Below are positions 29,830 through 54,017 of a DNA stretch of 64,000 nucleotides, in pieces (the first letter of the stretch is position 1; each line of letters begins with the position of its first letter). Origin of the DNA: Botryllus schlosseri. Lineage: Eukaryota. The stretch is taken from assembly GCA_051294905.1 (NCBI GenBank), contig CM119371.1, positions 33,730,001-33,794,000 of the forward strand. Direction: 5' to 3'. The position numbers and the translations under genes are program-made. Below the pieces are notes generated by a model. That model made no database searches and was not told where the DNA came from. It saw only the letters and a program-made list of their open reading frames with translations.

Positions 29830-32141
29830 CAGGGCATGGTATGGTATGGTATGGAAGTATGGTATGGTATGGATCGATATTTTGGTATGGAATATGGAAC
29901 AATGCAAGTATGGTAGGGAATGGAAGATTTTAATCTATGGTATGGAAAGACATTTCCATACTTCCATACTTTGGTGTTTTATACATCTTATCGTGATTTG
30001 TGCAAGCTTCATGAAGCGTACGTTGATCGCTGTTCACGGAATACGATCGCTTTTGTTATGTGTGAACGTGAACTATTGAACGCTGTGTAGATACAAATAC
30101 ACGCTTGTTCAACGGTTTAGGAGCACTTGGAATGACATGATTTTGTGATGTAATAATGACAACAGTAATGTTGATCCGATATTCTATTGAGTCTGGACTA
30201 GAGGTCGACCGATTATCGACAAGGCCGATTATCGAGGCAGATATTTAGAGCTTACCCGATTATCGATATCGGCATATGAGTGCCGATGTCTCGGCAGATA
30301 TTTTATATTTAAAAATATTTCAAAAATATTGGAAATTCAATGCTCCGTGTTCTGAATCTCAAGAAATCGACGACGCAAAGGGCGATATATGACAGATTTA
30401 CCCTTGCACGACGAGTTTAAGTAGGTGAGCATGCAGAGAACTTACCTTTTCGGGACTGATCTGCAATTCTGTATCATGTTTGACTTTTTGGGTTATCCCA
30501 AATTTCAACGAATGTGCACAATTAAGAAAAATTATTTTCAATTTCAGTTTTCTAGTTTGTTGTTCAGCATTCTGTGGCATGAACAAGTGCCATCTTGCCT
30601 AACATATAATATTTTTGGTGAAATTGTTCTCTGCTCCTTCCATATTAATATCGGCCTATGATATCGGTTATCGGCCTTGTGAGTGTGTCGAGATATCGGT
30701 ATCGGCCTGTAAAAATCGATATCGGTCGACCTCTAGTCTAGACACGACGCCTCCGAGCATAGGCTATCACGTGACGCAATAATTGGTAATGTAGGCAACT
30801 CCAGCTACCTCATTCCTTGAGTGACGACAGCTTACAAGCAATCATGATACAACGTACTAATTGCTCAATGTGATTGATAATTACATTTCTTCTGAAACAT
30901 TATCCTCACATTTATACTATTTACATACCGAGATATCCTATTGGTCATATTTCAAAATCTCTCGCATTAGGAATATAGATCAGGGAGTGGGGTAGACATA
31001 GTTTGAAATTCTCGCCACGCTAACCCCAACCAAATACTGTACTAATAATCACGCAGATCGCTGCAGTATTGACCGCCTGTAGCTGGGATATTTTATGGGT
31101 GCGCCCATATTATGAATTATTTTGCGAGTATTTACTTCAAACTTGCACGTGTCTTATGCCAATGTACTGGAAATGCGATGGTATTCTTATGGAGCAGGGG
31201 CGGGCAACTTCTCCAGTCGGTGGGCCGGATATAGGAAAATTAAGTACTTGGCGGCCGGATTGCTGAATGGATACATTATTCGCGCACATATACAAAGAAT
31301 AAATCGTATTTAATGAATGTATTTTATCGACATCCGCAATGTGGCTTTAAACCATTTCTCGTCGACAATGACAATACAATGTGGATTTGAGAACAGTATT
31401 GTCATACAGGCGCCGCCATGTCTGCTTTTCTCTGATCAACTAACTCACGGTGCAATTCTTAATTTTGATTTCAAAGCGATTGATGAGCCCGGTATCCAAA
31501 ATTTACCATTCATTAGGGTTGAGTACATCGTAAGTGCCGATAATGCAAGTCTTCTCGCTGCGATGAACTTACGCGTAAGCTCCTCTCTAGCACGTTGCGA
31601 AAAGTGCGCGCACCTATATAATAACATACAATATCTAAAATTTGACGTTTAGGCAAGTAGTGGGGAGTCTCGGCAAACTGGGGCCTCGGGCCACATTATC
31701 ATGTAAGACGGGAAACTGTCCACGGGCCGGAGAAAATCTCGTCGCGGGCCGTATGTTACCAATCCATTTTATGGACGGTCCTAGATAACAATCTGCTGAC
31801 TATATCATTTTACTCATGGAAGCTGTAGAGTAGACGTACACGGCACCTCACCACCGTGAACTAAAGCTCACCAAAACAGACTCTGTAAAACTAGTGCAAG
31901 GAATTAGATTCGCCTCATGGCTAGTTTAGGCAATAATGACATCCGAAATATCAATAATATAGGTGCTAGTGAAGGAACTATACTTATGATATTAAAGTAT
32001 TTGAAAGTATGGAATAAGTATCAAGTATGGTATGGAACAATGTTGGTATGGTATGGAAAATTGCAAGTATGGCATGGAGAGAGTACGGCAAGTATGGAGT
32101 ATGGAAAATTCTCGTTCCATACCATACCATACCATGCCCTG
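29830..32141 (+). mobile_element. Full copy of the CAGGGCATGGTATGG family (hAT-like, GTATG-rich ends)
   Basis: TIR CAGGGCATGGTATGGTATGGTATGGAA; perfect TSD CTTTTGGG. Confidence 0.9.
30199..30735. mobile_element. TAGAGGTCGACCGAT MITE, copy 2
   Basis: TIRs; TSD GTCTGGAC/GTCTAGAC; site empty in the paralogous copy (~33525). Confidence 0.9.
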
Positions 32142-33559
32142 CTTTTGGGTACTGATTGATGCGACGGCTACCATTTACTCCCGCTGTTTACCCGTATCAG
32201 ACGGAATTTCCGCTTTGATATTCATAGAATTGGGCATGGGCAGGTATCGCGTAGCAGTAACACTTCTACGAGATTCATTTGATTCAAAACATCTCATTTC
32301 AACCAGCTAGCCACGAAGACTTTTTAAGAAATCACGAATTACTTCGCACCGTGTTTATATAAATTATTATATAACAACTGTAAGCTCAGATTTTAAAATA
32401 AATCACGCCACACGTTAGACTGGACATCGTGTTATTTGTTTCTATACCGGTCAGTGGGAGGTATGGCATTGCATGCTATCAACCAGTGCGCTGTACTCTG
32501 GTATGCAACTTGCACTGCAACTCTGAGTGAGTGTTGCAAAGGCTGATACACAACGATAAGTTGAACCAAACACGCTAGCAACCTTCATAGCTGCTGCACA
32601 AGTGCGCATTCACCACTGTACTTTTCCGTGTCAACAAGGCACCAAAAGTTTGCTGCAGCCTTGTGGGCTTTGAGGTGGAGGTGATCTCGCAATGATACAA
32701 TTTCAATCTCTGACTGTTCAGCATCCAAGCATGACAGATTTCATTATACCTGACAGCAGCATCGATTACACAAAGTTAGAAACATGGTACTATAAACTTC
32801 GTTCAGTGTAAGAGAGACAAGCTGTGTCAAAAGATGCAATACGTAATGTTCATACTGCATCTGCTAGTACGTCAGCGCTATCTGCTACCGGATAGTAATG
32901 TTGTTTACTACTTTGGCCTTGTCCGGGACGTCGAGCTACCATAACTGAGCCCCCATAATTTCAAGAAGACCGTGGATGGCATGCCGTCATATCGCCTGTA
33001 TGGGCAGTACGCCGTATTCTACGTCTTCGATCTCTTGTTATTCTATTACATGTTATTGAATAGTAACCTATATTCATATTCATACTATTCAATTGTATAT
33101 TGAAGTTCTGTACCTCCAAGAAGCTCTTCAAATATTACATGTTGGTATATTATTAATTTTAATTGGGGATATTTGATATCATCATTTCAAGTGTTTATAT
33201 ATATATGTATTGTCATTTCTAAGTCACATGTTATACTTTGATTTAAACAAGAATAGGTAAATCACTCAATTTATATATTTAAAAGGTCACTAGTGATAAT
33301 CTGACGAATATTGGCAAATGCTGCTATTCGATCTATTTTTGGAACAGGCTCGCGGGCCACTCATCTGGTCTTCGCGGGCTACCTGGTGCCCGCGGGCACC
33401 AGGTTGGTGACCCCTGCTGTATATGATCAAATACACGCTTGTGCAACGGTTTTTGGAGCACTTGAAATTGCATGATTTTCTGATGTCATAATGACAACAG
33501 TAATGTTGGTCCCATATTCTATTCAGTCTAGACATGACGTCTCCGAGCATAGTCTATCA

Positions 33560-34709
33560 CAGGGGTGGGCAAACTTTTGAGTTCGCGGGCCGCATTCAAC
33601 ATCTGGATCTATTTGCGGGCCGCACTATATAAAATTGGGATTATAAACCAAAACGCAGTATTGGTATTTGATTATATAGTGATGACATGGAGATAATATA
33701 TATGCTTAATAAAACAAACCAAACATTGTTCGACACGCGTCAGAAACAGTGACGAGATTTCATAGGCTGGTCGACCTATTAATAACCAATTTGTCAAAAC
33801 TATAGAGATGAAAGTCGGTTGTCCCGATTCTTAGAACAGGATTGAAATTTAAATCTGTGAGCAGCGATCTGCTCATAGATTTACCAATTTCACAAATGGT
33901 CCAGTTCCAGGACACACAATGCTGACAGCACCATAACCATGTTAGTTTCAAGCAAGCTTCCACTATGTGTAGATAAAATATAAATACCCAATTCCACGCA
34001 TCAGAGAACGAATCTACCTAAGACACGCGCGAATCGTTTTTTATAAGTCTATCACTGAAATGACTAAAACTAAAGTGGCCAATCTGAAATCACACTCATG
34101 ATCCGAATCATGTCAATCTCGTTTAGAATATCTGTGATGTTTAGCAGTTGAAACCTTTCAAACTGCGTGGGCCTTGAGATCGGGCTCTCACGCCAGAAAT
34201 TAAACATAAAAAATATTATAGGAAGTATTTACCTTAGAACAGTGATTCTCAAACTTCTTAAGATACGCCCCCCCCCCCTTATGATGGTCAAATATTTTGC
34301 GTCCCCCGTATCGTCATATCACTAAACGCAACCAGGATGCTAGCCAATCTAACGGGTAGTTTGATGGCATGGAAGGCTACGACTGTGGATGAGAGATTTT
34401 TAAATATGAAATTCAGACTTAAATACAGAGCATATAATTATGAATGACATATGTAAATCGCGCGAACCGCGAAAACTTTTTTCAGTTGAGCTCAACTTCG
34501 CGCCCCCCTCCAGATGCTTTCACGCCTCCAGTTTGAGAACCACTGCCTTAAATCATGGTGAAATATACTACGAAAAATCCCTGCATTAATTCGATTTTTA
34601 GTACGCGTTTTATCAATATTTTTACTAAGTTTCTTTACACGCTCGCGGGCCGCACAAAATGGTGTTGCGGGCCGCATGCGGCCCGCGGGCCGTAGTTTGC
34701 CCACCCCTG
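33560..34709. mobile_element. hAT element with a smaller hAT MITE (34240-34545) inside
   Basis: TIR CAGGGGTGGGCAAAC; perfect TSD GTCTATCA; inner MITE TSD CCTTAGAA/CCTTAAAT; related to ~4020-4343. Confidence 0.85.
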
Positions 34710-34745
34710 GTCTATCATGTGTCTATCATGCGGTAATGTTGGCTA

Positions 34746-37700
34746 CACTGTTAGAAAAATTAGTAAATTTACACCTATTAATTAGTAAACCAAATACGAA
34801 TTGCTGTAGTAACATAATTTACTATCGTTTTTAGTAAACCCGTCAATTATTACTATGATACGGATTATTGGTACTGTGTATCGATGCTCCTGAATTACTA
34901 AATATTGAACATTTTCAGACCATGAGATTTGCGAACCACGAAATTTGCGTATTTACTATTTAGTCTTCAAAAATAAAGCGTAAAAGGAGATCTGAGGTAT
35001 ACATAGGCCAAGCCTCACCTGTGATGATACCGTAATTCATCATCAACGACTCAGAATTTATAATAATTGTTATTATTCGAATGCTATTGTCACACCGAAT
35101 TTGAAAACCCAATTAATATCGTCAGAGCATCAGAACTCAGAATCGCGCCAAATCACCCAGGAATGAAATTCTGCATAGTTACGTAACAATCCAAGAATTT
35201 GTGTTCACCAGGTCGTGACAAATTACTGATTCACGTGCTAGGATGTAGGTGTTGCGGTCGCATGTCAGGCGAAATATCGGATTTAGGAGGAAGCTGTGTT
35301 GGTGTCTAAGATAAAGAAATGGCAGTAGATTTGAAATGCCGGGTGGTCATCTGCAGTATGGAACTTTCTTCAACATCAGATATCTTTTGTCACCTGAAAA
35401 GCCATATTGGAAGCGGATTATTCGTCAAGTGTCCTTATCTGCACTGTTCCAAGAGGTATGACGTGTATCGTCATTTTCCAGTCATGTTAGCCGATATCAT
35501 ACCGTTTCGGATCAGACCAATGTGATTCAGCCAACTAACCATAATTCTGCTAGTACAAGCCCGAGCTCAATCGCCCAGGATCTGTTGCCTGCTGCCGATG
35601 TAACGAGCGACAACGCTCAGGAAGAGGAATTTAGGAATGATAACCCGAGCATCATGTTTGCAATGAGGATGGAGTACAAAAACCTCATTCCTTCAACTAC
35701 AGTGCAAGAGATCATGGCTGAGCTGCGTAAGCTATTAGCTTCCCATTGTAACGAGATTGTAAAACAGGTTAAAGCCTCAATCATGGAGCAAGAAAATACT
35801 GAACTTACCAGTACATCTCATACTGAGCGCTGACCAGAAATGTCTTATCGAAGAAAGCAGAAAGGCAGTTCCAGACAGAGAGGAAGTGAGAATGCTAATG
35901 TAAACTACATACCGACTCCATTCCAAAGAAAGGCAATCAATCAACCTGCTGCAGTATCAACAATCCGAGAAATGTGGCCCTTTCTCTTTGAAGTTGAGTT
36001 CATGTTCCAACATTATGGTATTCTCACTGGGACAGGAAATTCCAAGCAATTCCTTATTCGCAAGATGGACAATAACTGGCCTCGCATTCAAAAGTAAGCA
36101 AGATTTTTTTGTAATCTCATAAATAGGCTACACACTATAGGGCTGTTCAAAATATGAAATTCCTTCAGATTTCACTGGCAACTTGATAAAATTGTTGGGT
36201 TGGTTAAAAAAATGCTTCACACCATTTTTGGCTCAATTCTAACCGGTAGAAGCGTGATTCTTGTAGCCTAGTAGAAAGTTTTGAAATTATCATTAAAAAA
36301 TGGAAATTTCAAAATTTTTCTGTTTTCCCTCATAAAATTCTTAGGCTGTCAGTAGAGATGATGCATACTAAATTTGGCTCAATTCCAACCACTAGAAGCG
36401 AAGTTACTGCAGTAGAAAAATTTTTAATTCCATGATTTTATAACAAATAATTGAAGAGTTGGTCACCGTAAATACTTTTTTTTCTACTGCAATAACTTCG
36501 CTTCTATACACACTGTACTAGCATATTTCAAAGACAATTATATCAACGAGATACCGGTTATCTTTGCTCTCTTTTTAAATAAATGCTAATTGTACTCTTC
36601 ACAGGACATTAAAAAATATGACGGCGCAGAAAGTACAGAAAACACTGTCAAGACTTTCAACTATATGGGAGATAACGAAATCAGAATCATATGCTTCCTC
36701 TCTTGGCATCCTCGAGCTGATCTGTGCGTTCTTTGACGAACCAGCCTCTCAATTGTTCAAAAGAATGGTTAGTATTATATTAGCCCCAAAACCTATTTCT
36801 TGAATGTTTCCAATGTAGTTCTGTTCTATTGTTGGTAATAACTTTGTTTAATAATTTTGTTGTTGCCTGTCCTCTGGTAAAAGATTTTCACTACTCAAAA
36901 ATGATATTGGAATCATTGCTCACACATGCATATCTGTTTTCAGGAATTGCTCAAGATTTAATGGCAGATGCGCCGAACCACCCATTCTTGATTACAATCG
37001 GTAAGTATGTACATAAAGTATGGGTCACGTTCACACTGATGACTAACTGACTGTTACTGAATTTATTGCAAGTATAAAGTCATCGTGCGAATCTCATGGA
37101 CTTAGGTCGGGCATAATGATTTGAGCCTCAAATTGAATCAAGTATTAAATCATTTCATGTTGAAACCGCTTTGTAGTGTAAAAATGATTGCCCACCCCTG
37201 CTATTGTCAGTAAGTGACATGCACAGAATAGCGGCATAAGTCTCGATTATGAAAAATGTGTCCGGTTTTGTATTGCACAAGTCGGTTTGATATGAATGTA
37301 AAAATCGTCTGATTTTTGGTTTCTCTGGAAATTTGTTACCTCCGTGAGTGTGCTTGGTGAGCGTGGTGTAGAGATAGGGAGTGCGAGCAAGTTGGTACCA
37401 CTGATAAGACAGTCACAGGTACTCACTATCTTGTCAATAGTTATGCCGTAGTTGTGAAAATGAAATACTTCCCATAACTACTTTACAAAATCTGAACGCT
37501 TGAAAGTCAGTAGTTCTGCCCATCACTGTTTCGTACAAGTGGAAGTAGTCAAATGCCACAACCACTAGAATATAAGTAGCTCAAGTAGGCAACATTGGCA
37601 AACCTACTTGAGTATGCCAAAATAATAGATATAGATATACTTGATTACTGACCAGCGCCTCTGGTTGTCGGCACAGTCTCTATTTCATAACCTAGCCAAT

Positions 37701-39092
37701 GGCGTTAAATGTGCTGCATACTAACAATGCATTTTTGTGTTAGTCATGGATCCTGAGAAGATAATTAACCTTATATTGATGCCTTGCTCTTCTGAAGTGC
37801 CTACTAGCACTACACTCGAGTGGTTGGATTTTTACGCTTCTTCTACTCGTAATTGAGTATAAATTTATGACAGTAGCCCTATATCTAGTTGAGTAGCAGC
37901 TCTGACTGCTTTACAACTTTTGTTTATTTTCAGGCTCATCGAACTACAATGTGAAGGAGTTTGTGGTAACTGCCGAAAGATCAATGATATTCACCACGGA
38001 CTCCTTCTACGTTGCTTTGGCGTATCTGTTCGTCACATTCTATGTTTTCAACCTGGAACACCCGAGCGAACTGACAGCCACGTTGGAGTTTATGTAAAGG
38101 TAAGCTGAGTGAGAGTGAGACTATCAAATGTCAACCCATAATGGCAATGACTGATTATGTTTCTTCGCTCGGCTCAGCTGCTTTCGTTCACTGCTGGGCA
38201 GTGCAAAGGCACCTTTATTGGTGATCTCACAGCTGGCAACTGGGGCGCAAAATATTAATGAATCCGGTCCTAATGAAAAGCTAGTGTAACGGTGATTTCT
38301 TAAATAGAAATTAAAATGCGGTATGGGCACTAGAAATGCCTTAAAATCGCCCTGAAAAATCTGACATCTGCAATATTTTAAACAATCAGAGCTCTGCAAC
38401 ACATTGACAATAACAATTAACTATTGTGGTGCTCTGCTTGCTTATAACAATCACAATTTAACACGAAAATGTTAACATATGGGGTACTGGTAGCCCATAG
38501 TGAATAGGCTGGAGAACTTTGTTAATACAGCAATATAGTTTTGTCTGAAGCAAATTCGCTCTTGTTGATGGCCAGCCCCCAGTTATGTTATAAGATATAT
38601 TTCATATATTACAGAGTCTTCGCCGAGATTTCCGAAGTGTTCAAGAAAGAGAAAGACACTTAGAGTTCATCCAAAGGTGATGAAACTCACCAACCTCCTG
38701 CGGGAAACGGAATAAAACATGAAAATAAATGCTTTCATGCTGCAGCATTTGATTCAATTATTTCCATGGAGTTGTGCGTATTACCAGGGCGCGAAGTGTT
38801 AGAAAACCGCCATGCATATAGCATTAAGTCTATCCATACATTGATTGACACTAGATAGGGCTGTGAATTCAGTGCTAGCTTTACTAGTAATTTACTAGAA
38901 AGAGTAAAAATATTACTAATCTTTAGCATCAAGGTTACAAGAGTGAGTAGAAATGCTGCTTATCCTGAGTCCAGAAAATTTACTAAAGTTATAGTAAAAA
39001 AGTTACTAATTTTTAGTATGTAACGTTACCAGGGTAAGTAAAACTGCTGCCTCGCAATTAGGAGTAAATTTACTAAAATTTTTCTAACAGTG
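34746..39092 (+). mobile_element. Animal CACTA/EnSpm-type deletion derivative
   Basis: CACTGTTAGAAAAA termini, 2-bp TA TSD, AGTAAA/TTTACT subterminal repeats. Remnants of a C2H2-led ORF (35319-35815) and of a spliced SAMD3-like second ORF (TPFQRKAINQ..WPFLF..HYGILTG; YLFVTFYVFNLEHPSELTATLEFM). Confidence 0.8.
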
Positions 39093-40020
39093 TACTCCAA
39101 CTACCTCATTCCTTGAGTGACGAGAGCATACAAGCAATCATGATGCAACATACTTAATGCTCGATGTGATTGATAATTACATTTCTTCTGAAACATTATC
39201 CGCACATTTATACTATTCACATACCGAGATATCTTATTGGTTATATTTCAAACGCTCTCGCATTAGGCTGATAGATCAGGGAGTGGAGTAGATCTAGTTT
39301 GAAATTATCGCCACACTAACCCCAACCTAATACTGTACTAATAATCACGCAGATCGCTGCAGTATTGATCGCCTGCAGCTGGGATATTTTATGGGTGCTC
39401 CTGCTCCTATATTATAAAGTATTTTGCGAGTATTTACTTCAAACATGCACATGCGTCATGCCTATGTACCGGAAATGCGATGATATTCTTATGGAGCGGG
39501 GGCCGGATATAGGAAAATTAAGTACTTCGCGGGCTGGATTGCTGAATGGATAAATTATTCGCCCATGTATACAAAGAATAAATCGTATTTATCAGTGGCG
39601 GCTCGTGACAATATCGGGTGGTGGGGCAAGGGCTGCGAGCGACTTTTATCAAGATGACGTCACAATGGCGTTTTCCAACGTAAAAAAGTAACTTTATGAT
39701 GGTCACATGAATTTCCCGACAACAGTGATTTTAACGTAGGTGCCGCGAGAGGTTTGCCGGTGAGCCGTGACTTGAAGTGTGGTAACAAATGTTTTATTCA
39801 TTTATTTTTAATCAAAGGATTATTTTACAAAATGAACGTGAACTAAGAATCGCCCTATGCCACGAATCAAGTATCAGGTCATCCTTAGTAGCATGCGTTA
39901 TGATTTCATGGTAGAGTTAGAGATTACGCAAATCGATTGACCCTAATTTTTCTAAGCCCGTCCGAAAGTGTTTCGTACACGATCCTGGTGTGTTACGACC
40001 ACTGAGCTGGTGGTTACGAC

Positions 40021-40296
40021 CAGAGATGGGCGGATTCCAAAATTTCGGGATCCGAATCTATCCGGATCCGGCTTGCAATTGGAAATTCAGAGTCCAAAGA
40101 AATCCGGCTGGTGAATGTCCAGTTCGGAATCCGAAAAAATCCTGCCAGAACAATGCTAATTAATCATATCACAGCAAAAATAATCCGGCTAAAATCCGAC
40201 CGTCACCCCAAATTCAAAATCCGGATCCAGTCCGGCCAGGTAAAAAAAACATTGAAATCCTGCTCCGGCTCCAGAACCGGACTGTGGCCATCTCTG
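40021..40296. mobile_element. CAGAGATGG MITE with ATCCGG repeats
   Basis: Perfect TSD GTTACGAC. Confidence 0.85.
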
Positions 40297-40709
40297 GTTA
40301 CGACCAGGTGATAATAGGCAACCAAAGCGGAGGCACCCGGCGTACGATTGGATCAATAGACTGGACGTGGACAACTTCTAGACCTCTCATTTTCGCTCTA
40401 AAGGCAACTGCGTAAACTACGTACGCAGCAAAGATTCAATACGATTCATGTTCGCGCTTGACTTGACCTGACTAATTCCAATGACTAACTCGAGAGATTG
40501 CGTAAGCCTAACTGGAAAGGTCAACGAGTTCGGACACATACGCAATTGTTATCTCATAGATTGGGCCTGTCATATTGAATCCAGAACATCAATTTGAATG
40601 GTCTTTGAAGAACTAAGGACAGCAGCCTCGGAACTTCGGTCTCGGAACAACATAGGACATTTTGGCCTTGAAACTGGAGACTGTGACACAACACATACGG
40701 CTTACTGTC

Positions 40710-42563
40710 TATACGGCCGTAAACCAAACTTTACGCTGATTGGTCGAGAGACAATGGCCATGGATACGACGCAGCAACGGAGGACGCTGCATTTACTTCA
40801 ACATATAGTCGGCACTACGATGTATTCCTATAGCCGTGCAGACTGTATAAAAACGACAAGATTACAGTTAAATGTTTATTTCTTCATCAATAATGAAATT
40901 AGGAAAGGAAATAAAATATTTAATAACATATACTGAAATATAATGCCGAAAAACTACTGTGTTTATGAATGCAGTGCCACCAATGGCAATGAACTGGGGA
41001 AGAACAGATCTTTCCATTCATTTTCTTCCAACGCAAAGGACAGAAAGGCTTGGGAAGGCAGAGTATAAGAAGGCAGGACTATTTGTGGCATACATTTGGG
41101 CCTGAATTTGTTGCCAATAAGAGTGATTTACTTGTAATTATCTAGCAGCAGTCAAATAAAAACTACTTTCCTGTGATTTCTGCCCAAGTTCAAATTTCAT
41201 GAACTCATTGCATGTGCTGTTACGATACCTCAAGCACACCAGTGCAGATGAGGTCTGCTCAGCTAGAATCACTCTATCATGTGAAGCACCCAGATATCCA
41301 TATGGAAAAAGAACATGACCAATCTTTGCTACATTCACATGCGTGATGCTTAGTAGTCTTGAATGGCGCTTTCTTCGTGCAATAACCCCCACAATATTGA
41401 ATACCAGTTGATACTGTACTGTCATTGAAGTGATTTGAAAAGAGATGTTGCATATGGAGTACATGCTGTCTTGTTCCCCTCAAAGCAGTCCAAAATCCTA
41501 CCAAAATTGCTACTTGTGAGTCGAAGAGCCCAATGTATTTACCCCATTCTGCACATCCTCTCTGTTCTGATGTTCTGTGGGCTTAGGTAGCTAATCTGCA
41601 TATGACTGACTTCGTTGGCCTCTCACCCTAAGATTCAGGTGATGGATTTGAAGATTCCATTTCAAGGCTACACGATGGCGATTCTAGATCAGGATCACCA
41701 GATGACAATGTAAGATTTGCATGTGCAGCATCCACAACATTGCAGGAAGACAGTTGACACGGCATGGAGTTCAGGGTCCGCCTCTTTGCAATGCGCATAA
41801 TCTTCTGCTTCACCACGGAGATTGCGACTGGGAATCGCACCTCTCTTTAGACGTGACTGTATTGGTATATCTATAATGCACTAGCAGCAAAATCTTCCTT
41901 GCAAAATTGGTAGGAGCAAATTATTATTATTATTATTATTGTACACAACTGTGGTGCTTTTAGCCTGTTTAAGGCTTTGTGCTCCACGACATGACAGTAT
42001 TCGAACTGATCAATGCATTTATTCTTGTCTTTGACATTCTTTCCACTCTCTCATGCATCGGCTCGCGATTCATCGGCTCTTTAGCTGCCGACTTGTAGCT
42101 CGCCTCACTGTGATTTCTGGGCTTTTTAAGTCAGTGCAACTGCAGTGAGGTCGACGATGAGGAGTAAATGAAGCTTGTGGAAGTAGGCTTGAAATCCTGC
42201 CTTCTTACTCTGCATTCCCAAGCCTTCCTGACCTTTGCGTTGGAAGGAAATGAATGGAAAAATCTGTTCTTCCCCAGTTCATTGCCATTGGTGGCACTGC
42301 ATTCATAATCACAGTAGTATTTCGGCATTATATTTCAGTATATGTTATTAAATATTTTATTTCCTTTCCTATAATTTCATTATTGATGAAGAAATAAACA
42401 TTTAACTGTAATCTTGTCGTTTTTATACAGTCTACACGGCTATAGGAATACATCGTAGTGCCGACTACATGTTGAAGTAAATGCAGCGTCCTCCGTTGCT
42501 GCGTCGTATCCATGGCCATTGTCTCTCGACCAATCAGCGTAAAGTTTGGTTTACGGCCGTATA
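40710..42563 (-). mobile_element. THAP-containing foldback element (~370-bp TIRs), copy A
   Basis: 40710-41080 is inverted at ~42197-42563. ORF 42328 MPKYYCDYEC...FFHSFPSNAKVRKAWECRVRRQDFKPTSTSFI is a THAP N-terminus. No TSD longer than TA is visible. Confidence 0.8.
41922..42159 (-). mobile_element. Retroposed 3' fragment with (AAT)n tail interrupting the THAP ORF
   Basis: Flanked by ATTT(A/G)CTCCT duplication; same insertion in copy B (55586-56270); removal restores FICS..F.KEDF. Confidence 0.65.
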
Positions 42564-44962
42564 AGTCTGCTGCGAAATCGCCGTTGGAAAATATATTAAT
42601 CAATAAATACATGAATAAAAGCCGTAAACTTAGTATACTGTTACAAGAAATCATCGAGAAGTAGCATACGCAATCTCATAACCCATTCCGGTATGGTACA
42701 CTGTCAAAATCAATACAAACAGACGAACACCGAACTTTGACTAAAATAGATCGAGGAATAGGCTGATCGAATGATCAGCTGTTTGCCGACATCGAAAATG
42801 AAATAGCTATCGCATTTGACAGAAGATTGTAAGCAAATGGTTAGAAGGCCACAATTTCACAGTGAAATGGACATTGGCGAACATAAAATTATGTGAATAT
42901 TTGAATGCAAACCGAGAATCTTGGTTAGCTGTTTCATGCGATCATCGAGATATACCATTGGAAATATCATCACCGATCTCGTTATGGGAACGCAGACTAT
43001 AGATTAGCACAGACCGACACCGGCTTTTGCGTGAGATCCGCAATGACGTAGGTAGGCTAAGTATCAGATCAGCGCGCATCTCTACCATACTCGACCTCGA
43101 AAACGAAATAACTGCCTCAATCATTGAGTGTCAACTTTAAGACTTGGCACCGCGTTCGATACTAAAATCAAGACATACCGTGCAAAAGCTCATGACAGAT
43201 CTAGGTATGGAACATCGTTAAAATCAATAGAGACCAATAACGGCTTTTGCGTAAATTTGTTAGCGATAAATGAAGAGTCAGCTCTTACTCGACTTTGGAA
43301 ACGAAATTACCACCCACATAGTTCAGTGACAAACTTAAAACTTGTTACAGCGGTCGATACTAACACTTACCGTGCCAAATGTCATGACCGATCTCGGTAT
43401 AGAACATCGTCAAAATCAATGGAGACCAATACTGGCTTTTGAGTAAAATCTGTTTGCTGTACTATGTACAATTGTACATGATAGATCAGCACACACTGAA
43501 CTTCGGAAACGGAATTACTACCCTTATCTTTAAGTAGCAAGCCTGAAACTTGGAGCAGTGTTAAATACTACCTTCACGACATATCATACCAAGTTTCAAG
43601 AATTATCATGGTGCGAAACACAGTCAAAATCGACCTATACCAGCAAAGGTCGACTCAACGCATATTACGGTAACCGAGTTCAGATATAGATACGATTGTT
43701 ACATCACACCTTAGGGGCGACAGGCATATTTGCCCCGGTTGCTCGGCCATTTTACGAATAGGAGAGAGTAAATCACCGTTTCTTTATTGTGCGCGGCTTT
43801 GAGAGAATAGATAGTGAAAGCTTGTTATGAGCGCTACCGGGGCAAGCCCCGGCTAGGCATTCTCAAAGCGAAAACACAGAAGAGAATTCGATTTTCGCAG
43901 AGACTTCGCTATGTATGGGCCTTTGCAAGCGAAAGCACAAGAAGAACGCGGGTTTCGCTGTGATCTCGGTATGTATTGATTGCTGTGCGTCTATAAATGG
44001 TTAAATTGTTATTGAACAGAATTTTAGGTGGGGCAATGCCCCAGTTGCCCTATAGGACGAGCCGCCACTGGTATTTATTGTATGTATTTTATCGACAGCA
44101 ATGTCACTTCAAAGCCATTACTCGCCGATATTGAAAATACTATGTCGATTTGAAAACAGCATTGCCATACAGTCGCCGCCATGTCTGCTTCTCTCTGCTC
44201 AACTAACTCACAGCGCAATCCATAATTAAGATGTCAAAATGTTTGATAAGCCCCCTTACCCAAAATTTACCAAGATATCAATTCATTAGGGTTGAGTACA
44301 CCGTAAATGCCGATAATGCAAGCCTTCTCGCTTCGAAGAACTTACCCGTAAGCTCCGCTCTCGCACGCTGCGCAGTGCTCAGATCTATATAATAACATGC
44401 AGTCACTAAAATTTGACGTTTAGGCAAGTAGTGGGGAATCTCAGCAGACTGGGGCCGCGGGCCACATTATCATGTAAAACGGGAAACTGTGAGCGGGCCG
44501 GACAAAATCTCGTCGCGGGCCGTATGTTGCCAGTCCCTTTTGTGGACGGTCCTCGATGACAACCTGCTGACTATCTCATTTTGCTCGCGGAAGCTGTAGA
44601 GTAGAGAGATACACGGCACCTCACCACTGTGAACTAAACCTCACCAAAACAGATTCTGTGAAACTATTACCAGGAGTTAGATTCGCATCATGGCTAGTTT
44701 AAGCAATAACGACATCCGAAATATGAATAATATAGGTGCTAGAAAAGGTACTATACTTATGATATTGAAGTATTTGAAAGTATGGAATACGTATCAAGTA
44801 TGGTATGGAACAATGTTGGTATGGTATGGAAAATTGCAAGTATGGTATGGAGAGAGTAAGGCAAGTATGGAGTATGGAAAATTCTCGTTCCATACCATAT
44901 ACCATACCATGCCCTGAATGTGAGACGCCGTATAGCTACTTGGCGTCTGAATTTGTCTAGCG

Positions 44963-47900
44963 CAGCGCTTCTCAACCGGGGGTCCGCGAAGCAATTTCAG
45001 GGGGTCCGCGAGTCCTATAAATTTTTAGTATTGTTGATATTCTAATTTTTATTTTATTTTTTTGATTTAAGAAAGCATGAGGCAGTTTCGTACCACAACT
45101 GCTTAAACCTCATGACTCATATCATCATCATAATCGTCTGACATGAACTATCGTAGTGCGGAAATTCATTTTCATTGCCCATTTTCCATTATCCTGCTGA
45201 TACAAACATATTGCTGTTTGAGACGTTTTGTAGGGGTTTGTGGAAAAAAATAAAAATATGGAGATTGTAACGTCAATCAGGGTGACTTCGTAATGTCTGC
45301 AAAACCTTCTCGATTTGAAGTTGTCAGTCTCATCAAATTAGTGTACAGTCGTTTGAAATAAAAATTTCCGAAGTATATCCTTAATTTGTCCCAATGCAGG
45401 TATTGAAACCTCGCCACGAAATCCATTTTATCATGTGATATACATAACCACTATTTGAACAGCTTTTTAGAGGTACAGAACTTCAATATACAATTGAATA
45501 GTATATTCATATTGAAATGAACCCGAATATTTTCGGCTGACATCCGTCATAAATCGGACAATGATATACCTGCTCTTTCAGACCCAGCCCCCTCTATAGA
45601 GTGGGTGATTGTCTCTGCTCTTTCAGACCCAGCCCCCTCTATAGAGTGGGTGATTGTCTTCCGGCAATACCCGCGCCCATTCTATAGAGGGGCGACATGA
45701 AGTTCACGATTCGGACGGCCGTCGATTTCGGCTTAAGGTGCAAATGATCCTTTAACATTTTCTTGTAATAATGTTATCGTAATTTTCGATAATATAACTG
45801 TCACGGGGCATATTAAATGAATGCAACATAGCAAAGTCGCCGATAATAGTTGTCAATCAAGCTGAAATATATGATTGTGAACTCAAAATCAATAGTCAGA
45901 TTTCATTGATGAATAAACAATGTAGTATGGTCGCATTGCGTAATCTCGTACTAAAGAATACCGTATCGCTGTGTGTGAGTACCGACAAGACAGGAGCTTC
46001 AGGCAACATTCTAGCTAACGGTCTGCCGACCCTGTTGTGTCCCCGTGTGCTACAGAATACCGTTTTTCTTGAGTACCAGCAAGCTATGAGCTCCCGTTAT
46101 ATTCAAGTGAATGGTCCTGATGATCTTGCCCACAACCGTGTCGAACAAAACCACTTACTACAACCTACAGAAGTCAGAAGTGAACTGCTGCCGGAAGAAT
46201 TCACCAGACATGTGTGCGAACAAATGAATGTTTATGCGAAAAACAAACATACCAACAAAACATAGCAAGTGCGTTGACGATTATAATCAGGGAATGAACG
46301 GAGTTAATCGCACAGATAAAAACAATGCCTTACTACAGCTTTGAGCGTAGCTGTAAAAAATGGTGGAGGAAACTTTCTTTCACTTCTTCAGTCTAGCAAC
46401 CACTAATGCCTATATTTTGTATTTGGAATATGTTAGCCGATACGGATACATCATGGTCAAGTTGAGAGCCAAGCATATTGCACAGCCACCTCCAGCAGGT
46501 GCCAAAAGACTGCACCTGCCATATCTGTTACTACAGAGAGCGTACCAAACAGTTATGTGAAGGAGCATATTTCTCTTGATCGGGCGGCTTCTGAATCTTG
46601 ATGTCAATTCGTAATATTTGCCATCAATGTCACAGATGCAGAGGGTCTTCTTTTTTTCGTTCTCCTTTTATTGACTTCACCATGCTTGAAAATAAACATC
46701 ATTATGAGTACCGTACCATTGCCTATATACTCTGAGTAATTCATCACAATTTGACTGATATCAAAATTATAGGACATAGCTCATCTAGATACTAATAGTT
46801 AGATTACCTATCTAGTTGCTAAAAGCTAGATAATATTCAGGGGCTGGAGAACCCTGCTTGATGTTTGATGATATTCATGTTCTTGTGGTTAAGAAAGTAC
46901 CATGCTTTCCTGCTAGAACATTGGTATTCTAAACAAAATCCAAATGCAAATACACATTACACACTTTCCCTGATGCACTCCAGCGCGTTTCCTGCGCCTA
47001 TGTTACTTCTCAGGTACAAAACGAATGAGACTCGATTGACATCTGCCGTTATTTTTTCCAATACAATTACATGATTACAAGCAGTACCAAACATTTTATT
47101 TCAATAGATTTAATCTATAACCATACAAATAAATTAGCCAAAAGTACGTACTTACCGCAACTTATCCGGGGAATATTCACTCACCGCAATTCGACCTACA
47201 CAACATATCAACACAGCGGCACATCTACTTTTCCAAATTATTCCAAAATCATACAGCGTGAAGCGTCTTGATACACCCTAAACAGTGATGTGTCACATGC
47301 GTCGAATAACCAAAAACTCGCAAGTCTGTGAATCTTAGAATATGCGCAATCAAATGCAATTTTCCGGGAATTCGGGGTGTTCAGAGACAATGGCCTGGGA
47401 TTCAAAGAGAGCTCGGCTATCAGATTTGGCGCATTCTTATTGCGGATGCCCTATCGACAAGGCGGGTTTTTTGAAGAACAAGGAGTGTTTCGTTGCTATC
47501 AAAGCATTACGCTTCAACCCTGAAATTCATATCACAAGTTATATTGGTACGCAGCCTTGTCTTGTTAATGTTCAATTTTTCATGGTCGAAAATGTTTTCT
47601 CGTTTATATATATGTAAACCAGAACAGAAAAAGTAGTTCCATGAAAGTCTTTCTCAGGTGGGAAAACTTGGATCCATTCTTTGGCACATAAAATTTGTCT
47701 ATACTTTTAGATTAGGATTTAACTTCGACGGTAGAAACTTTCTGCGGGCCGATCAAAATACCGTCGCGGGCCGCGCTAGATGCTGGACGTGGTATGTTCA
47801 TAAAATAGATGTTTCTTCATTTTGGTGCCATAAATGTTGCGATCAAACCGAAAGTATCGTCGGAAGCGTTATGCGTTAGCATCCATCTATCTTTCCGGAA

Positions 47901-48224
47901 ATGGTTTTCGGCACTCCTCGTTCATATCAAACGAAGACGCGGATTTTCAAGACACGACCGCGTACTTCAAGAAATACAGCAGCAAAATTAGCGTTGAAAT
48001 AATCGAAGTCTACCAATTTCTACATAAATAGTAGCCTATGATGATATTTTCAAGAAAAGTCATTATTTTTCTGTTTATCACAAGCCTACAGTTCATATTT
48101 GCACAAGACAGATATGAAGGTTGCACCATAATAGAGCTAAAATTGAACTAAAACTTGAGGGGGTCCGCGAGAGTCCGTGACGGTCAAAAGGGGTCCGCGA
48201 AGCCAAAAAGGTTGAGAACCACTA
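44963..48224. mobile_element. hAT element carrying a ~1.9-kb insertion
   Basis: CAG(C/T)G(C/G)TTCTCAACC-type TIRs, GGGGTCCGCGA repeats, perfect TSD GTCTAGCG. Confidence 0.85.
46180..46430 (+). pseudogene. piggyBac transposase remnant
   Basis: ELLPEEFTRHVCEQMNVYA joined by deletion to DYNQGMNGVNRTD..YYSFERSCKKWWRKL/FFHFFSLATTNAYILY. Confidence 0.75.
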
Positions 48225-48385: not shown

Positions 48386-51300
48386 ATGACAGCGATTGCT
48401 CTAGCTGAGGATTTGACACACCTCATTAGAATCATAACAGTTCAAGAACTTAATTGTGGTGGCGAAATCAGAACGTTCAAAACGTCAGAAAAGCTAGATG
48501 AGCATATCGAGGCGGTACACTGGGCTCATCGTGTACGTCACACTGTCGACAACGAAGTGCAAGGTGTGTAAAGATTTTACCCAAGTATAGCTATGTTGCA
48601 TTCCTCAGTGAAGAATCTCTACCTGATTGTGATTTAGGGGTAATTGACTGAGTGTTAAAAAGCTTGATATTATCATGGCTTGCGATTACTTGAAAACTGG
48701 AATTCATTTAAAATAAATTGATATTTAGAGGTACTACCCATCAAATATTAGTTAGCAAGACATGTCAGCGGAGTCATGAGTCAGAATAATTGAGTAATTT
48801 AACAGTAATTGAGTAATTTAACCTGGTACTTTCCAATTTTCGTGTGGACATAATTAAACTAGTTCATGTTACACATGATCGATTTGATTGGGGGAAATTT
48901 TTCCTTCAGAGTTTCTTCTATTCTAACATTATACACTATAATCCACTCTCAACTAATTGGCTATGCTGTTTTATGACCGTTACTGTAACGTTACGAAGCC
49001 TGATTGGGTGTGAAGACAAAGACTGTATATCAATTTTTGGGACCCTCAAGGACAAAAATTCCGGGGTCCAATGTGATCATTTAGATGCTGTAGAAAATGC
49101 ACGTCCATGTGCAAACATTGATTTAGATGAAAAGGTTTTGAACACCCTTGTTGAAATGAAGCTAATATCAAGCGTAACTAGTGAAAAATGCAGCAATGAA
49201 AGAATGAGGAGTGTGCAATGTAATGCTCCACTCGTGGTGCATGCAAATTTTTAAGCATTCAATATTTCGAAGAAATACAAGTATTATTCTATCTTCACTG
49301 GCCAGAATACATACTATAGTCCTAGTGAAAGAGTGCGGGTGACAGTTGACGTTGACAGAGGCTCATGGTCATGTCTTTGCTCATGGAAAACTGGAACATG
49401 CTTGCACATCACACTGGCGAAATGGTATGTGTTCCAGACTGAACCAGAGCTCATATCATGTATGTCGAGGTAATCTTCATTGCATGACTTTCAAACATTC
49501 CATAATTAGGTTCTTAATATTTGATTTACAGTACTCAACCTCCTACTGATGACATGCAATTGAATATGAAGTATTTTCTCGAGCATAAACTGATTCCAGA
49601 AAAGATACCTAATGAATATTTGAAGGAAGGAATAATTTCAGAATTGACGCCAGAAGAAACTGTTTGCGCAAGGTGTGCTGGAGTCCTTGAAGTGAGCGGA
49701 ATGCGAAAAGCTCAGATTTAGATGTGGAAAGGTAATTAATTTTATTTTACATTTCTGTATTTCTATATGCTATTCAATTGTATATTGAAGCTCTGTAGCT
49801 CCATGAAGCTCTTTAAACATTGCTTTAATTAAGGTGCAATATAGCTTAAGTTAAACTAATGAGGTTATTTCATTCTGTTCTCAATCCGATCAATTTTAGG
49901 AGTCTGTATCAAGGAAAAGTCTTGCAATTCGTGTGGCTGGCAGGCTCGATTCCAGAATTATAAGTCTGGTGTGCATAATTTTGACGGTCATATATTACTG
50001 ACGCTGCGACTATGTATGCACTTGAAGAATAGAATAGCACTAGCTAAAAACATTGGGTATTTCAGGCATTTTCTTTGCAATATGGATCCGGTAAATTTCA
50101 TATTTCTGTCGAGAGTTTCCATGCATCTTCAAAATATGAAGATCAATGTAAGATATATGAAAAAGACCAAGAGACATTTCTCCAAGAGACATTTTTCCAA
50201 GTCTGTTGTCCTCGCAGATGATGGCCGTGCAACACTGGCTATGAAAGGTAGAGCTGCAAATTTCATCTGTGACTTTGTTTTATCATGAAGTCTAATTTTG
50301 ATTTTTCAGTATATTTAATATGGAGTTGTTACTCACAGATGATGGACCAGTTGGAAAACCGCCCGGCAATGTTGCTACTAGCTCTTTTTGCGACCGGTCT
50401 GCCAATTCTGCAATGGTGTCATGAACTGATAAAAAAGACACTATTCCTCCCACTGTCACCGACCATGTACAAGCATCAAGTGGTAGTAATGTTCCCACTC
50501 GTCTCATTATTGCTACTGTGACTGTTCCGTCGCATGTTGGTTCTGTTACCAATTCCATATATGTTGATTCATGCTATGACAAATTGTCTCAGCCGAAAAC
50601 GGAATCTTGCTCCATCGTTGCAAGAGATGCATTTGAAAATTCCGTGGACGAAAATGCCACAAAATGCAAAGATGTCCAGACACTTCCATTCAAATTCACA
50701 GATATGTTTCATTATATTTCATGTTGGTGATTGTTATTGTACTGATGACAATACTCTTTCAGAAATAAATTCACTTTTTACGTCGGCACATAAAGCAAAT
50801 AGGATTGAAGCTGTCGTGAATCGGCTACCTTTATTCACACATGACCTGCTGCTTTTGAATGGATGTAGCTGGCTAGATGATAAGGTCATTTGCTCTGCTG
50901 TCATTTTTATGAAGACTAATTAATCTTGTTCATCTCCTAAATTTCAGTTGATGGATTGTATTATTTTTGCCCTCAATGAAAAAGTAAGTCATTGCCAAGT
51001 TTTTTGTTTGCTGAAAACTATTTAAAGCTTGTAATTTCAGTCGAAGGTCATACGATGGTTGTTGTTTCCTGTCTGCTAGCTACTGATTGGTTTGTTGGTG
51101 GGAAATTTGCCTCTGGCAAGAAGAAAACAGTATGTGTCATAGTAACAAGACATTTCAATATTCTCTAATATAGTGATTCACTCTAGAAAGAAGCAGCTAC
51201 AAAATCTTTTGTAGCGCCACTTAATGTTCGTTGTGGCAGAACTGGTGCGGGCAGGGGCAACCATTGGATTCTTTTGGTAAGCATGTTCCATACCTGACAG

Positions 51301-52135
51301 ATTCTACCTTGTATTCTACATTGTAAGTTTGTGAAACTCATTGCTTCTCACCCCTTTCACCCATGTTCTGTCTCGTCAATATATTCTGTATTAGTGTAAT
51401 GTGTGTATATACTCTTTCAGATATCTGACGCTGAATCAAATATGGTTCTACTATACGATCCAATGGGCCACGAGGCTCGCTATGGGAATGTCCTGCAACA
51501 GTTCGAGTAAGTCGATGAGGTCGTATTCAAGAGACATATTTCATTTCTGTATTAATCCAGCGAATTTATACGAACGTACTCAAGAAGAGAATCAGTTGCG
51601 AGATATACAGGATTAATAAGGACCGGTGTTCAAAATGACGGATTTAATTGTGGAGTCCTTGCGTTTAAGGTTTGTGATGCGTTCATGTATTAAGATTTGA
51701 GAAAATAGATTTTCAAACTTTCATTTAATAGGTCGCCCAACTCTACTTGACCACTGGATCATCAATCCCATATGGCAACCTTGATTTTGATCATTCTCGA
51801 CGAGCTCACGAAAGCTACCGCCAGCAGTTTGATCAATTCTTGCTCGATGCGACGGGTATGTTGGTCCATGTCAAGATGAAAACCCTATTAAATACGTTGC
51901 ATGTTTTTCCTGCAGATGAGAAAGAATTGACAGATTATTGCATTAAATGCATTAGTCAAGACCACCCAAAAAAGACATGAAATGGGTATGCAATTACGAG
52001 ACTACATTTGTCAGGTATATTGATTCAAACTCGTATCCAGGTTGCGTGTGACGGCTGTGGTCGATGGACACACGAGGACTGTTGCCCGGGACAGCAGATA
52101 CCTGATCCCGATGATGATTTTTATTGCCTGCTCAT
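48386..52135 (+). pseudogene. Multi-exon Zisupton-type protein remnant: SWIM-like, CxC, Ulp1/C48 protease, PHD finger
   Basis: RVRVTVDVDRGSWSCLCSWKTGTCLHITLAKWYVFQ; LTPEETVCARC; KSCNSCGWQARFQNYKSGVHNFDGHILL (HMGXB3/Zisupton-like). WLDDK, GNHWILL, LYDPMG, QNDGFNCGV (H-D-C triad). YCIKC..W/VACDGCGRWTHEDC..FYC. GT-AG introns; several stops and frameshifts. Confidence 0.85.
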
Positions 52136-52382
52136 TTCATTGTGACTTTTACTATGGTTCCACTGCCATTTCTTGATGACTTTTAACTGTGCCAATGCTT
52201 TTTCTCAGTCATTTTTACTGTGGTTCCACTGCTCATTTCTTAATGACTTTTACCGCGGTTTCATTGCCTTCTGCTGTGGTTCCGTTGGCTATTTCATATT
52301 GTGGTATTGCAGTTTCATTACATACTGTATCTGCAGACTTAAGTCTGAAATTCATTGCGAGTGTACAAATATGGGGTGGTGA

Positions 52383-52787
52383 CAGGGTTGTAACTAAGTC
52401 ACTAGGTTTAAAGAAGTCAAGTTGAGTCGTTTTCAATTCACCGGCGAGTCAAGTCCGAGCAATCCCTAACGAGTCAAGTCCGAGAGCAATGGGTCGAGTC
52501 CAAGTCGTGGTGTTTACTGTTCCCCATCGAGTTCAGCTTCAGATCACTTATGTGGAACTCGCGGGGGCGATATCGAAGGCCTCGGATAATTTTCATGTTT
52601 ATTTTTCCCATTCTAAACATGGTTATTGTAACAGATAAAAGGCAGGTTTGGGCATATTTTTCATTTATCAGTCCTGATATACCATTCTTGAATAAGTCAT
52701 ACAATGAGTAAATCCATTTTCAAGAAAATGACTCGAGTCGTCAAAAAAATTGTGAGTCGAGTCATGACTCGATTCATTGCAACCCTG
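52383..52787. mobile_element. CAGGGTTGTAA MITE, copy 3 (diverged)
   Basis: TIRs; TSD GGTGGTGA/GGCGGTGA. Confidence 0.75.
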
Positions 52788-52945
52788 GGCGGTGATACAA
52801 TAATTTGATACAGCTAAACATGCAATAGATAATTTGGGATTCTGCCACCGCTTATTATGACAAAAATTTAACAGTATGCAATCTTAGATATCATATAGTC
52901 GCGCCATGAAAGGATTTAGCCTCTGCTCAGTTTATACCGAGACAC

Positions 52946-53175
52946 CAGACGCCAAACGCCGTATAGCTACTCGGCGTCTCAACATGACAGACGCTAAACG
53001 CCGTATAGCTACTCGGCGTCTCACCATATCAGACGCCATACGCCGTATAGCTACTCGGCGTCTCACCATATCAGACGCCAAACGCCGTATAGCTACTCGG
53101 CGTCTGGACATAACAGACGCCAAACGCCGTATAGCTACTCGGCGTCTGAACATAACAGACGCCAAACGCCGTACA
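52946..53175. repeat. 42-bp tandem array (5+ units), Zisupton subterminal repeats
   Basis: Unit CAGACGCCAAACGCCGTATAGCTACTCGGCGTCT + 8 variable nt; one related unit at ~44922-44950. Confidence 0.9.
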
Positions 53176-54017
53176 GACATTTGGCGGCCGCTCGGCGTTT
53201 GGCGTCTGGCGTTTGGCCTCTGAGCGGGTTTAACCCCTGCTCCATTTCTGGTAGGAACTAGCTGTCCTAACGAAGTAGTTTAGAATGAAAAAACGTTTTT
53301 GGCTCAGAAATAGGCAACTTTTTAACGCTACGATTTTGACAAAATTTTGACAAATTTTGACATGTCAAAAAATGGCCGCTCTAATGATTATACAAACCAA
53401 AATAGTTCAAGGAAACCTCAGCCGAAGTCAATATTGGAACCAATTAATAATAGAGTGAATATCATGACTTCTTTTGCTCATGAAATGTCCTCCTGATATT
53501 AACGCATTGATAGCCGCGCCAGTGGCTATGTACTGTATCACTAAATAACCTGTTCTGATTGCCCTATATCCTATCTGCACCAAACATACCTGCGATTTTA
53601 ACAGTCAATCTGGCCGACAACCTGCCGCTTCATGCTATGAAGCGACAACAAATCTGACGAGCATCCGGTCTCACGACCGTGAAGCACGTGTTGCCCATCT
53701 ATCCTTAGGTTAGTTATCTATAGTCATTAGTCATACTCAGCGAAACGGGATGGAACACTGTAACGAGAGCTTTAAGAAATTTTGGATCGCACAGCATATG
53801 ATGCGATGTTGTCTGTCCTCCGAGCAAGTGCTACCAAATGACGGGGTCATGAAAAGTGTTAAGCGTCGAAACCTTCTGATCTATCACGTTAGAGACAGCA
53901 TTACCGGTTTTGTAGCATTGTAGCAGTGAGAAGTCACTTTGGACGAGCGGGAATTAGGTTCATGGTATTATAGCATCCTTAAGAGCACCGTTCATGCCTA
54001 TCGTTCCTACTCGTGGG

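Follow-up and report, generated by a model that had tools for sequence, protein, structure and literature searches.

Zisupton transposons are described as having terminal inverted repeats, an 8-bp target-site duplication and a multi-exon gene for a protein of about 1300 residues with a CxC4 domain and a SWIM-type motif (in the available parts of PMC12730594, PMC9297572, PMC11343200 and PMC12062965). A Ulp1 protease domain followed by a PHD finger stands at the C-terminus of another transposon, Ginger1-9_HM, which was aligned with Mutator transposases; the accessible sections of that paper propose a role for Ulp1 in transposition or repair and mention neither chromatin nor silencing (PMC2836005). 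A PHD finger is also present in Rehavkus (PMC6446971, in excerpt), and the pairing of Ulp1 with PHD, known for Ginger1 and Mutator transposases, is not new. We analysed a 64,000-nucleotide stretch of Botryllus schlosseri DNA (contig CM119371.1, positions 33,730,001 to 33,794,000; hereafter the window), in which the short exons at 50763-52145 almost certainly form, once spliced, the 3' portion of a transposase gene that belongs to a Zisupton/KDZ DNA transposon. An earlier note, made from the letters of this DNA alone, had proposed a transposon-encoded C48 (Ulp1-type) protease of Zisupton type, split by small introns and fused to a PHD finger, and this proposal is supported by the data below. 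The window copy itself is dead: exons 5-10 are deleted, stops and frameshifts are present, and it makes no working protein and is not autonomous. It would have been able to move only with the help of an intact copy; it is debris.

To delimit the element, the genome of the same species was searched, yielding at least 91 matches, from which 40 loci were fetched; together with the window, 41 stretches were examined. Both end motifs were found in 24 of them, and a perfect 8-bp target duplication was present in all 24, the window included, with a pyrimidine first in 22 and a purine last in 20. The other 17 were not counted, as only one end matched (the stretch being too short or the end altered). 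The window element ends at 29733 and 53242, each end flanked by the duplication CATTTCTG (29725-29732 and 53243-53250). The element has terminal inverted repeats, the left one being interrupted in the window: its first 26 nt (29733-29758, plus strand) are identical to those of the intact copy L023, and an inner piece of the left terminal region (44917-44962, plus strand) matches L023 at 46 of 46 positions, with nested insertions on both sides. The right terminal region (52946-53242) holds 42-bp subterminal repeats and the terminal inverted repeat. Shared 3' ends had raised the idea of a rolling-circle element or a retroelement, which was rejected in view of the inverted ends, the 8-bp duplications and the introns.

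Two sister loci of 8.1-8.2 kb, L022 and L023, each have an unbroken frame of 1280 residues spread over 21 exons, and all 20 of their introns are GT-AG; intact copies of the family are young, at about 99% identity. L024 and L025 are damaged, and L021, 96% identical to the window element, has the same deletions and the same lost cysteine. Splicing of the tail was examined with RNA. As observed on L023, all nine tail introns were seen as GT-AG joints when four runs were taken together (contigs of run X5, 9/9; contigs of X3, 7/9; raw reads of X22 and X24 together, 7/9, with several of these raw-read joints resting on only 1-3 reads), and a tenth joint skips exon 20. The splice junctions proposed earlier are thus borne out in the intact sister. 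A 731-nt contig showed 1 difference from L023 (four pieces listed) and 28 from the window (two pieces), indicating that the transcripts derive from intact-type copies and not from the window copy. In the window, a three-frame view and a splice-site listing showed all nine tail exons (13-21) to be bounded by AG and GT, and exons 16-19, including the three that carry the catalytic triad, join in one frame. The small GT-AG exons and in-frame triad claimed previously are therefore confirmed, both by this listing and by the RNA joints of the sister copy.

When the single exons of L023 were compared with Pfam, matches were obtained to C2H2 (E 1e-5), CxC4 (E 3e-5), SAP (E 4.5e-5) and PHD (E 1e-4). 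The single-exon CxC4 match (E 3.2e-5) scores 24.2 bits, below the cut-off of 26.9, which unspliced relatives pass. An alignment of the transposase core in 15 rows showed two Asp residues, a DRxH and an EQ to be invariant. Since the inverted ends, the 8-bp duplication, the many exons, CxC4 and the SWIM-type motif all fit its descriptions, the element was assigned to Zisupton. A Ulp1 domain and SAP also occur in fish Zisupton. The family differs from described Zisupton in ending in a PHD finger, as well as in several Pfam domains that its exons did not match and in the dead state of the window copy. The earlier note had suggested searches with Pfam KDZ and CxC5, and neither matched: KDZ (PF18758) was not found in single exons or in the long relatives scanned, a point against our reading as a whole, and CxC5, like CxC7 and F-box, gave no match in the exon scans. 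CxC4 and SAP did match, weakly. Pfam SWIM also failed to match single exons, despite the CxC..CxH motif in exon 2; the SWIM label is our own reading of that motif, which we take to be of this type. Protein searches by word matching, with exon 2 or the read-through as query, returned nothing, which is weak evidence, as a profile search later found relatives; an ESM Atlas search with exon 2 gave only C2H2 leads below 0.9. No description of a PHD finger in Zisupton was found in the literature, although the founding Zisupton/KDZ papers or their supplements lay outside the search and may show PHD fusions.

The tail domain is firmly assigned to C48 by sequence profiles and a predicted fold. In the window it starts in exon 13 (50763-50884), which has a WLxD motif with Trp at 50870, continues through exon 14 (50948-50983) and exon 15 (51041-51129), and ends in exon 19 (51732-51855); these and all other exons lie on the plus strand. 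The predicted catalytic His (CAT 51262) lies in exon 16 (51187-51276), the Asp (GAT 51457) in exon 17 (51421-51506), and the oxyanion Gln (CAA 51631) and catalytic Cys (TGT 51649) in exon 18 (51561-51669), so the positions given earlier for the triad and Gln were exact when the window codons were read. A C48 profile was built from 16 Pfam-positive C48 domains, with 1000 shuffles of each query as a control. The spliced L023 domain scored 52.9 bits against a shuffle maximum of 3.5, and window exons 16-19 scored 32.8 bits against 2.6. Pfam Peptidase_C48 did not match single exons or the read-through with introns left in. A profile search and cluster look-up led to two proteins of the ascidian Clavelina lepadiformis, P0168 (CAK8678785.1) and P0169 (XP_076799422.1), the first of which aligns across the whole tail (29% identity, E 1e-37) and matches Pfam Peptidase_C48 at 41.6 bits (cut-off 20.7). 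The C48 check called for earlier thus succeeded with our own profile for both the window and L023, and with that of Pfam only via this orthologue. Both Clavelina proteins share the domain order and the C48 and PHD clades of the window family; they differ in being automatic records with a short loop before the His, and P0169 is without part of the core. A predicted model of P0168 (63.6 overall on the predicted local distance difference test, pLDDT), whose alignment included host SENP rows, gave Z scores of 19.6 with SENP2, 19.2 with SENP1 and 19.1 with NEDP1 (root-mean-square deviation 2.7, 185-191 residues aligned). The tail domain shares with SENP1/SENP2/Ulp1 and SENP8/NEDP1 the fold, the WLxD motif and the order His-Asp-Gln-Cys, and differs from them in its approximately 20% identity and its fusion to a transposase and a PHD finger. 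A match of the His exon to designed Kelch proteins, at about 7 bits per repeat, was rejected as chance, and a single-sequence model of the L083 tail (pLDDT 31) was not used.

His, Asp, Gln and Cys are kept in all seven spliced rows, and five related loci of the same genome (L086, L087, L090, L093 and L102) keep the same four residues and the same intron positions; the protease of intact copies is very probably active. The ratio of nonsynonymous to synonymous substitution (dN/dS) in the tail was 0.17-0.34 in all six comparisons of diverged elements, two of which have almost saturated synonymous change; three pairs of close copies gave 0.22-0.59. By this measure the protease-PHD tail is under purifying selection between families. 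That the tail is host-gene debris, passively carried and without function, is hardly credible: although the exons of the window copy are 6.0% and its introns 6.4% different from those of L023, as expected of neutral decay, and short non-autonomous copies retain only part of the tail, the dN/dS values between diverged elements largely refute this possibility, and the conserved intron positions and residues, the in-frame fusion in intact copies and the orthologue in another species also speak against it.

The PHD finger is encoded by exon 20 (51916-51985), which holds its first half, and exon 21 (52041-52145), which holds the second. Pfam PHD matches window positions 51981-52142 with a score of 24.5 bits and E 2.8e-5, the cut-off being 24 bits, and the PHD-like Cys/His pattern previously noticed after the protease is in this way verified. 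The complete Cys4-His-Cys3 set is present in L022, L023, L086, L087 and L090; in the window the eighth zinc ligand, the last Cys, is replaced where a 35-bp minisatellite begins. A Trp two residues before the His was found in 17 of 17 pattern-matched PHDs (L063, L064 and L099 are among those not matched by the pattern), and the window's clade has in addition a Tyr before the first Cys and a Trp three before the third. In methyl-reading PHD fingers the diagnostic Trp occupies this position two before the His. Such fingers, among them the third PHD of KDM5, PHF2, Spp1 and the ALFIN-like proteins, prefer H3K4me3, and they share with the tail both Cys4-His-Cys3 and the conserved Trp. They are also its best matches in the PDB, differing in that the sequence matches to them are weak (E 1e-4 to 1): among PHD fingers P0168 comes closest to 2ma5, from KDM5B (E 1.4e-4, by PDB sequence), and the PHD of the window family finds PHF23 and PHF2 at E 0.007-0.02. 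A conserved Trp marks methyl-K4 readers, and H3K4me2/3 marks active chromatin (PMC5415848 and PMC12713335, both in the parts available). The Trp signature therefore points, at the level of sequence, to H3K4-methylated active chromatin rather than to silenced chromatin.

Proteases of SUMO or ubiquitin type are found in many cut-and-paste transposons, and the literature examined only proposes what their role is. We consider it reasonably probable that the tail of intact copies docks the transposase on H3K4-methylated chromatin via its PHD finger while the C48 domain removes SUMO there. According to this scheme, the zinc fingers, CxC4 and SAP would bind the element ends and the D-D-E core would cut and paste; the PHD finger would read H3K4me2/3 and hold the transposase on nucleosomes; and the protease would remove SUMO locally, either from the transposase itself or from repair or silencing proteins at the site of excision or insertion. 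That such local action during transposition is the main role has close to an even chance, if slightly less; it is argued for by the fusion of these domains to the transposase and by the role proposed in the available sections of PMC2836005. Intact copies that are young and spliced, and that combine all catalytic residues with a reader domain, make the substrate, the histone mark and the effect on transposition or silencing open to assay.

Regarding the substrate, SUMO is the one we favour with moderate confidence, on profile evidence. The clade profile scored the host SENP1-like protein above SENP8, by 31 to 25 bits, and by 40 to 28 with the Clavelina rows. A PDB profile search in which host SENP rows formed part of the alignment was circular and was set aside for specificity. 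A number of results weigh against docking coupled to SUMO removal. The fold match ties SUMO and NEDD8 proteases (Z within 1), identity to the host SENP1-like protein is 20% and to host SENP8 19%, the protease tree leaves the window's C48 clade unplaced, and the available part of a review considers it unlikely that the C48 domains of plant transposons have SUMO as their target (PMC6117577). Five relatives (P0005-P0008 and P0010) keep the PHD, while their C-terminal C48-like domain has lost its catalytic Cys, and among 16 long relatives scanned, some of them probably incomplete, 2 match C48 and none PHD, which indicates that the tail is dispensable in other lineages. The CpG of the flanks did not set the 24 insertions apart from the window (1.03 vs 0.96, p 0.30), a weak test that lends no support to targeting.

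The tie of NEDP1 with SENP1 and SENP2 in the fold search leaves room for a deneddylase or deubiquitinase instead of a SUMO protease. The window family also has a long loop before the His, like host SENP8, and OTU or UCH domains occupy the same place on other transposases (in the sections of PMC2836005 available, and in our scans). We find this alternative doubtful, as the Clavelina orthologue has no long loop, the loop Asn is a His in other families, and the sequence profiles lean to SENP1; an assignment to NEDD8 made from the loop was dropped on account of that orthologue. It is also conceivable that only the PHD finger is important, selecting targets or activating in a way comparable to RAG2, with C48 serving mainly as a binding scaffold. 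The five relatives mentioned above, in which a PHD with the cage Trp persists next to a C48 that has lost its Cys, agree with such a role, but the four catalytic residues are kept across families that are 50-60% identical, and in Clavelina, and we think it very unlikely.

Two host genes and several unusual C48 regions were recorded in these scans. L103:915-1844 is the host SENP8/NEDP1 orthologue, in one open frame (PDB E 6.5e-43), and L061:550-2043 holds the host SENP1-like domain, also in one open frame. P0007 carries another C48-like region close to the N-terminus. A further C48 relic, from the window's clade, lies inside a family copy at L054:3585-4215 (minus strand) and runs opposite to that copy; its introns stand at the same positions, its loop is short and it carries no PHD.

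The earlier suggestion that the protease counters silencing was also considered: by stripping SUMO off silencing factors at copies of its own element, the tail could keep those copies transcribed. Transposon silencing guided by piRNA in the fly needs SUMOylation (10.1101/2021.07.27.453956, in part), the family is transcribed and spliced, and silencing guided by nascent RNA starts at active loci, which a reader of H3K4 methylation could mark; moreover, several transposases of this genome that are unrelated to one another also carry C48 with PHD. On the other hand, the PHD cage points to an active mark and not to silent chromatin, and a literature search by title found no transposon protease with such a role. 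In a plant, a module of SUMO protease and histone reader promotes silencing (10.1101/2023.01.13.523841, in part), so the direction of the effect cannot be read from the domains. We regard anti-silencing as rather unlikely, and prefer local SUMO removal during transposition.

C48 with PHD was found in the same genome on intronless Zisupton elements (L083, L084), on MULE-type elements (L099, L064) and on the elements L095 and L096, and outside it in Holothuria P0009. In Ginger1-9_HM and Mutator the order is likewise transposase, Ulp1 and C-terminal PHD, some with GT-AG introns (in the available sections), but their transposase core, ends and target duplication are unrelated to those of the window family; the C48 of the latter also forms a clade separate from the MULE C48 of the same genome. 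Some of these elements have features of their own. The protein of the intronless Zisupton at L083:3656-7720 and L084:5114-7570 has C48, PHD and a SprT-like metalloprotease motif at its end, as do P0003, P0009 and P0011. L098:2454-4823 and the Branchiostoma lanceolatum protein P0111 have C48 adjoining a ubiquitin hydrolase (UCH) in one frame; P0111 carries CxC4 too, and no other C48 from outside the window's clade matches that clade as well as the one in P0111. L095:2934-6326 and L096:2588-6085 have repeat-filled inverted arms of about 1 kb and a single frame of 1130-1170 residues ending in C48 and PHD, with no Pfam transposase match.

Another Zisupton family (family D; L086, L087) indicates that the tail may be exchanged. 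Its single-exon core is 56% identical to that of the intronless L083 and 31% to that of the window's family, whereas its protease shares its intron positions with that of the window's family and is 51% identical to it, against 18% identity to the protease of L083. Approximately unbiased (AU) tests rejected two groupings, D plus the window family for the core (p 0.0002) and D plus L083 for the protease (p 4e-5), with groups that were named after the trees had been seen and with the window family's core forming a long branch. As Clavelina is of window-family type in both parts (core identity 44% vs 25-29%), D most simply took its tail from the window's lineage. An intron-rich protease-PHD cassette thus appears, from these comparisons, to have moved between two Zisupton lineages, and this apparent exchange suggests that the module is selected as a whole. 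The reason for such trading may be that the cassette disarms silencing that depends on SUMO, at copies that are transcribed and H3K4-methylated; the core and tail identities of family D support the exchange, while the anti-silencing part is a proposal, and as a whole we think this unlikely. The single-exon core with a window-type, intron-rich tail is seen at L086:2661-8035, L087 and L090; no end sequences shared between this family and that of the window were found.

The remainder of the window gene is as follows. Exon 1 (48386-48563) has the start codon and a C2H2-like finger, and an RNA contig (X4) joins it to exon 2. Of exon 2 only the 3' part remains (48991-49469), with the CxC..CxH motif and one in-frame stop, the 5' part being deleted. 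Exon 3 (49532-49731) is 12 nt short and carries a stop, and exon 4 (49900-50030, CxC4) ends at the deletion of exons 5-10, which removed about 1.54 kb and with it the DDE-type core and SAP. Exon 11 (50066-50247) is the end of the transposase core, and exon 12 (50339-50701) a low-complexity linker whose donor has changed to AT. Exon 15 is frameshifted (89 nt vs 87 in intact copies), as is exon 20 (70 nt vs 71); the first frameshift precedes the His exon, and hence no protease can be made from this copy. The frameshifts and the missing centre of the transposase had been foreseen, and the damage is worse than was claimed. Downstream of the gene lies the 35-bp minisatellite (52128-52267), which is common to the family.

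Further insertions and derivatives were noted. About 18 kb of nested DNA lies inside the left terminal repeat, at 29759-44916 and 44963-48224; the second block has its own 8-bp duplication, GTCTAGCG, and contains, at about 46300-46430, what we presume from its motif to be a piggyBac transposase remnant. A short element rich in GACTCGAG-like repeats is present at about 52380-52790, and similar elements occur in L022 and L024, in both cases within intron 6, as well as in one intron of L102. The loci L041-L060 form a non-autonomous subfamily, mostly of about 3.3 kb, with the same ends and only the end of the tail kept; RNA reads resembling them were the most abundant, with exon 20 often skipped.

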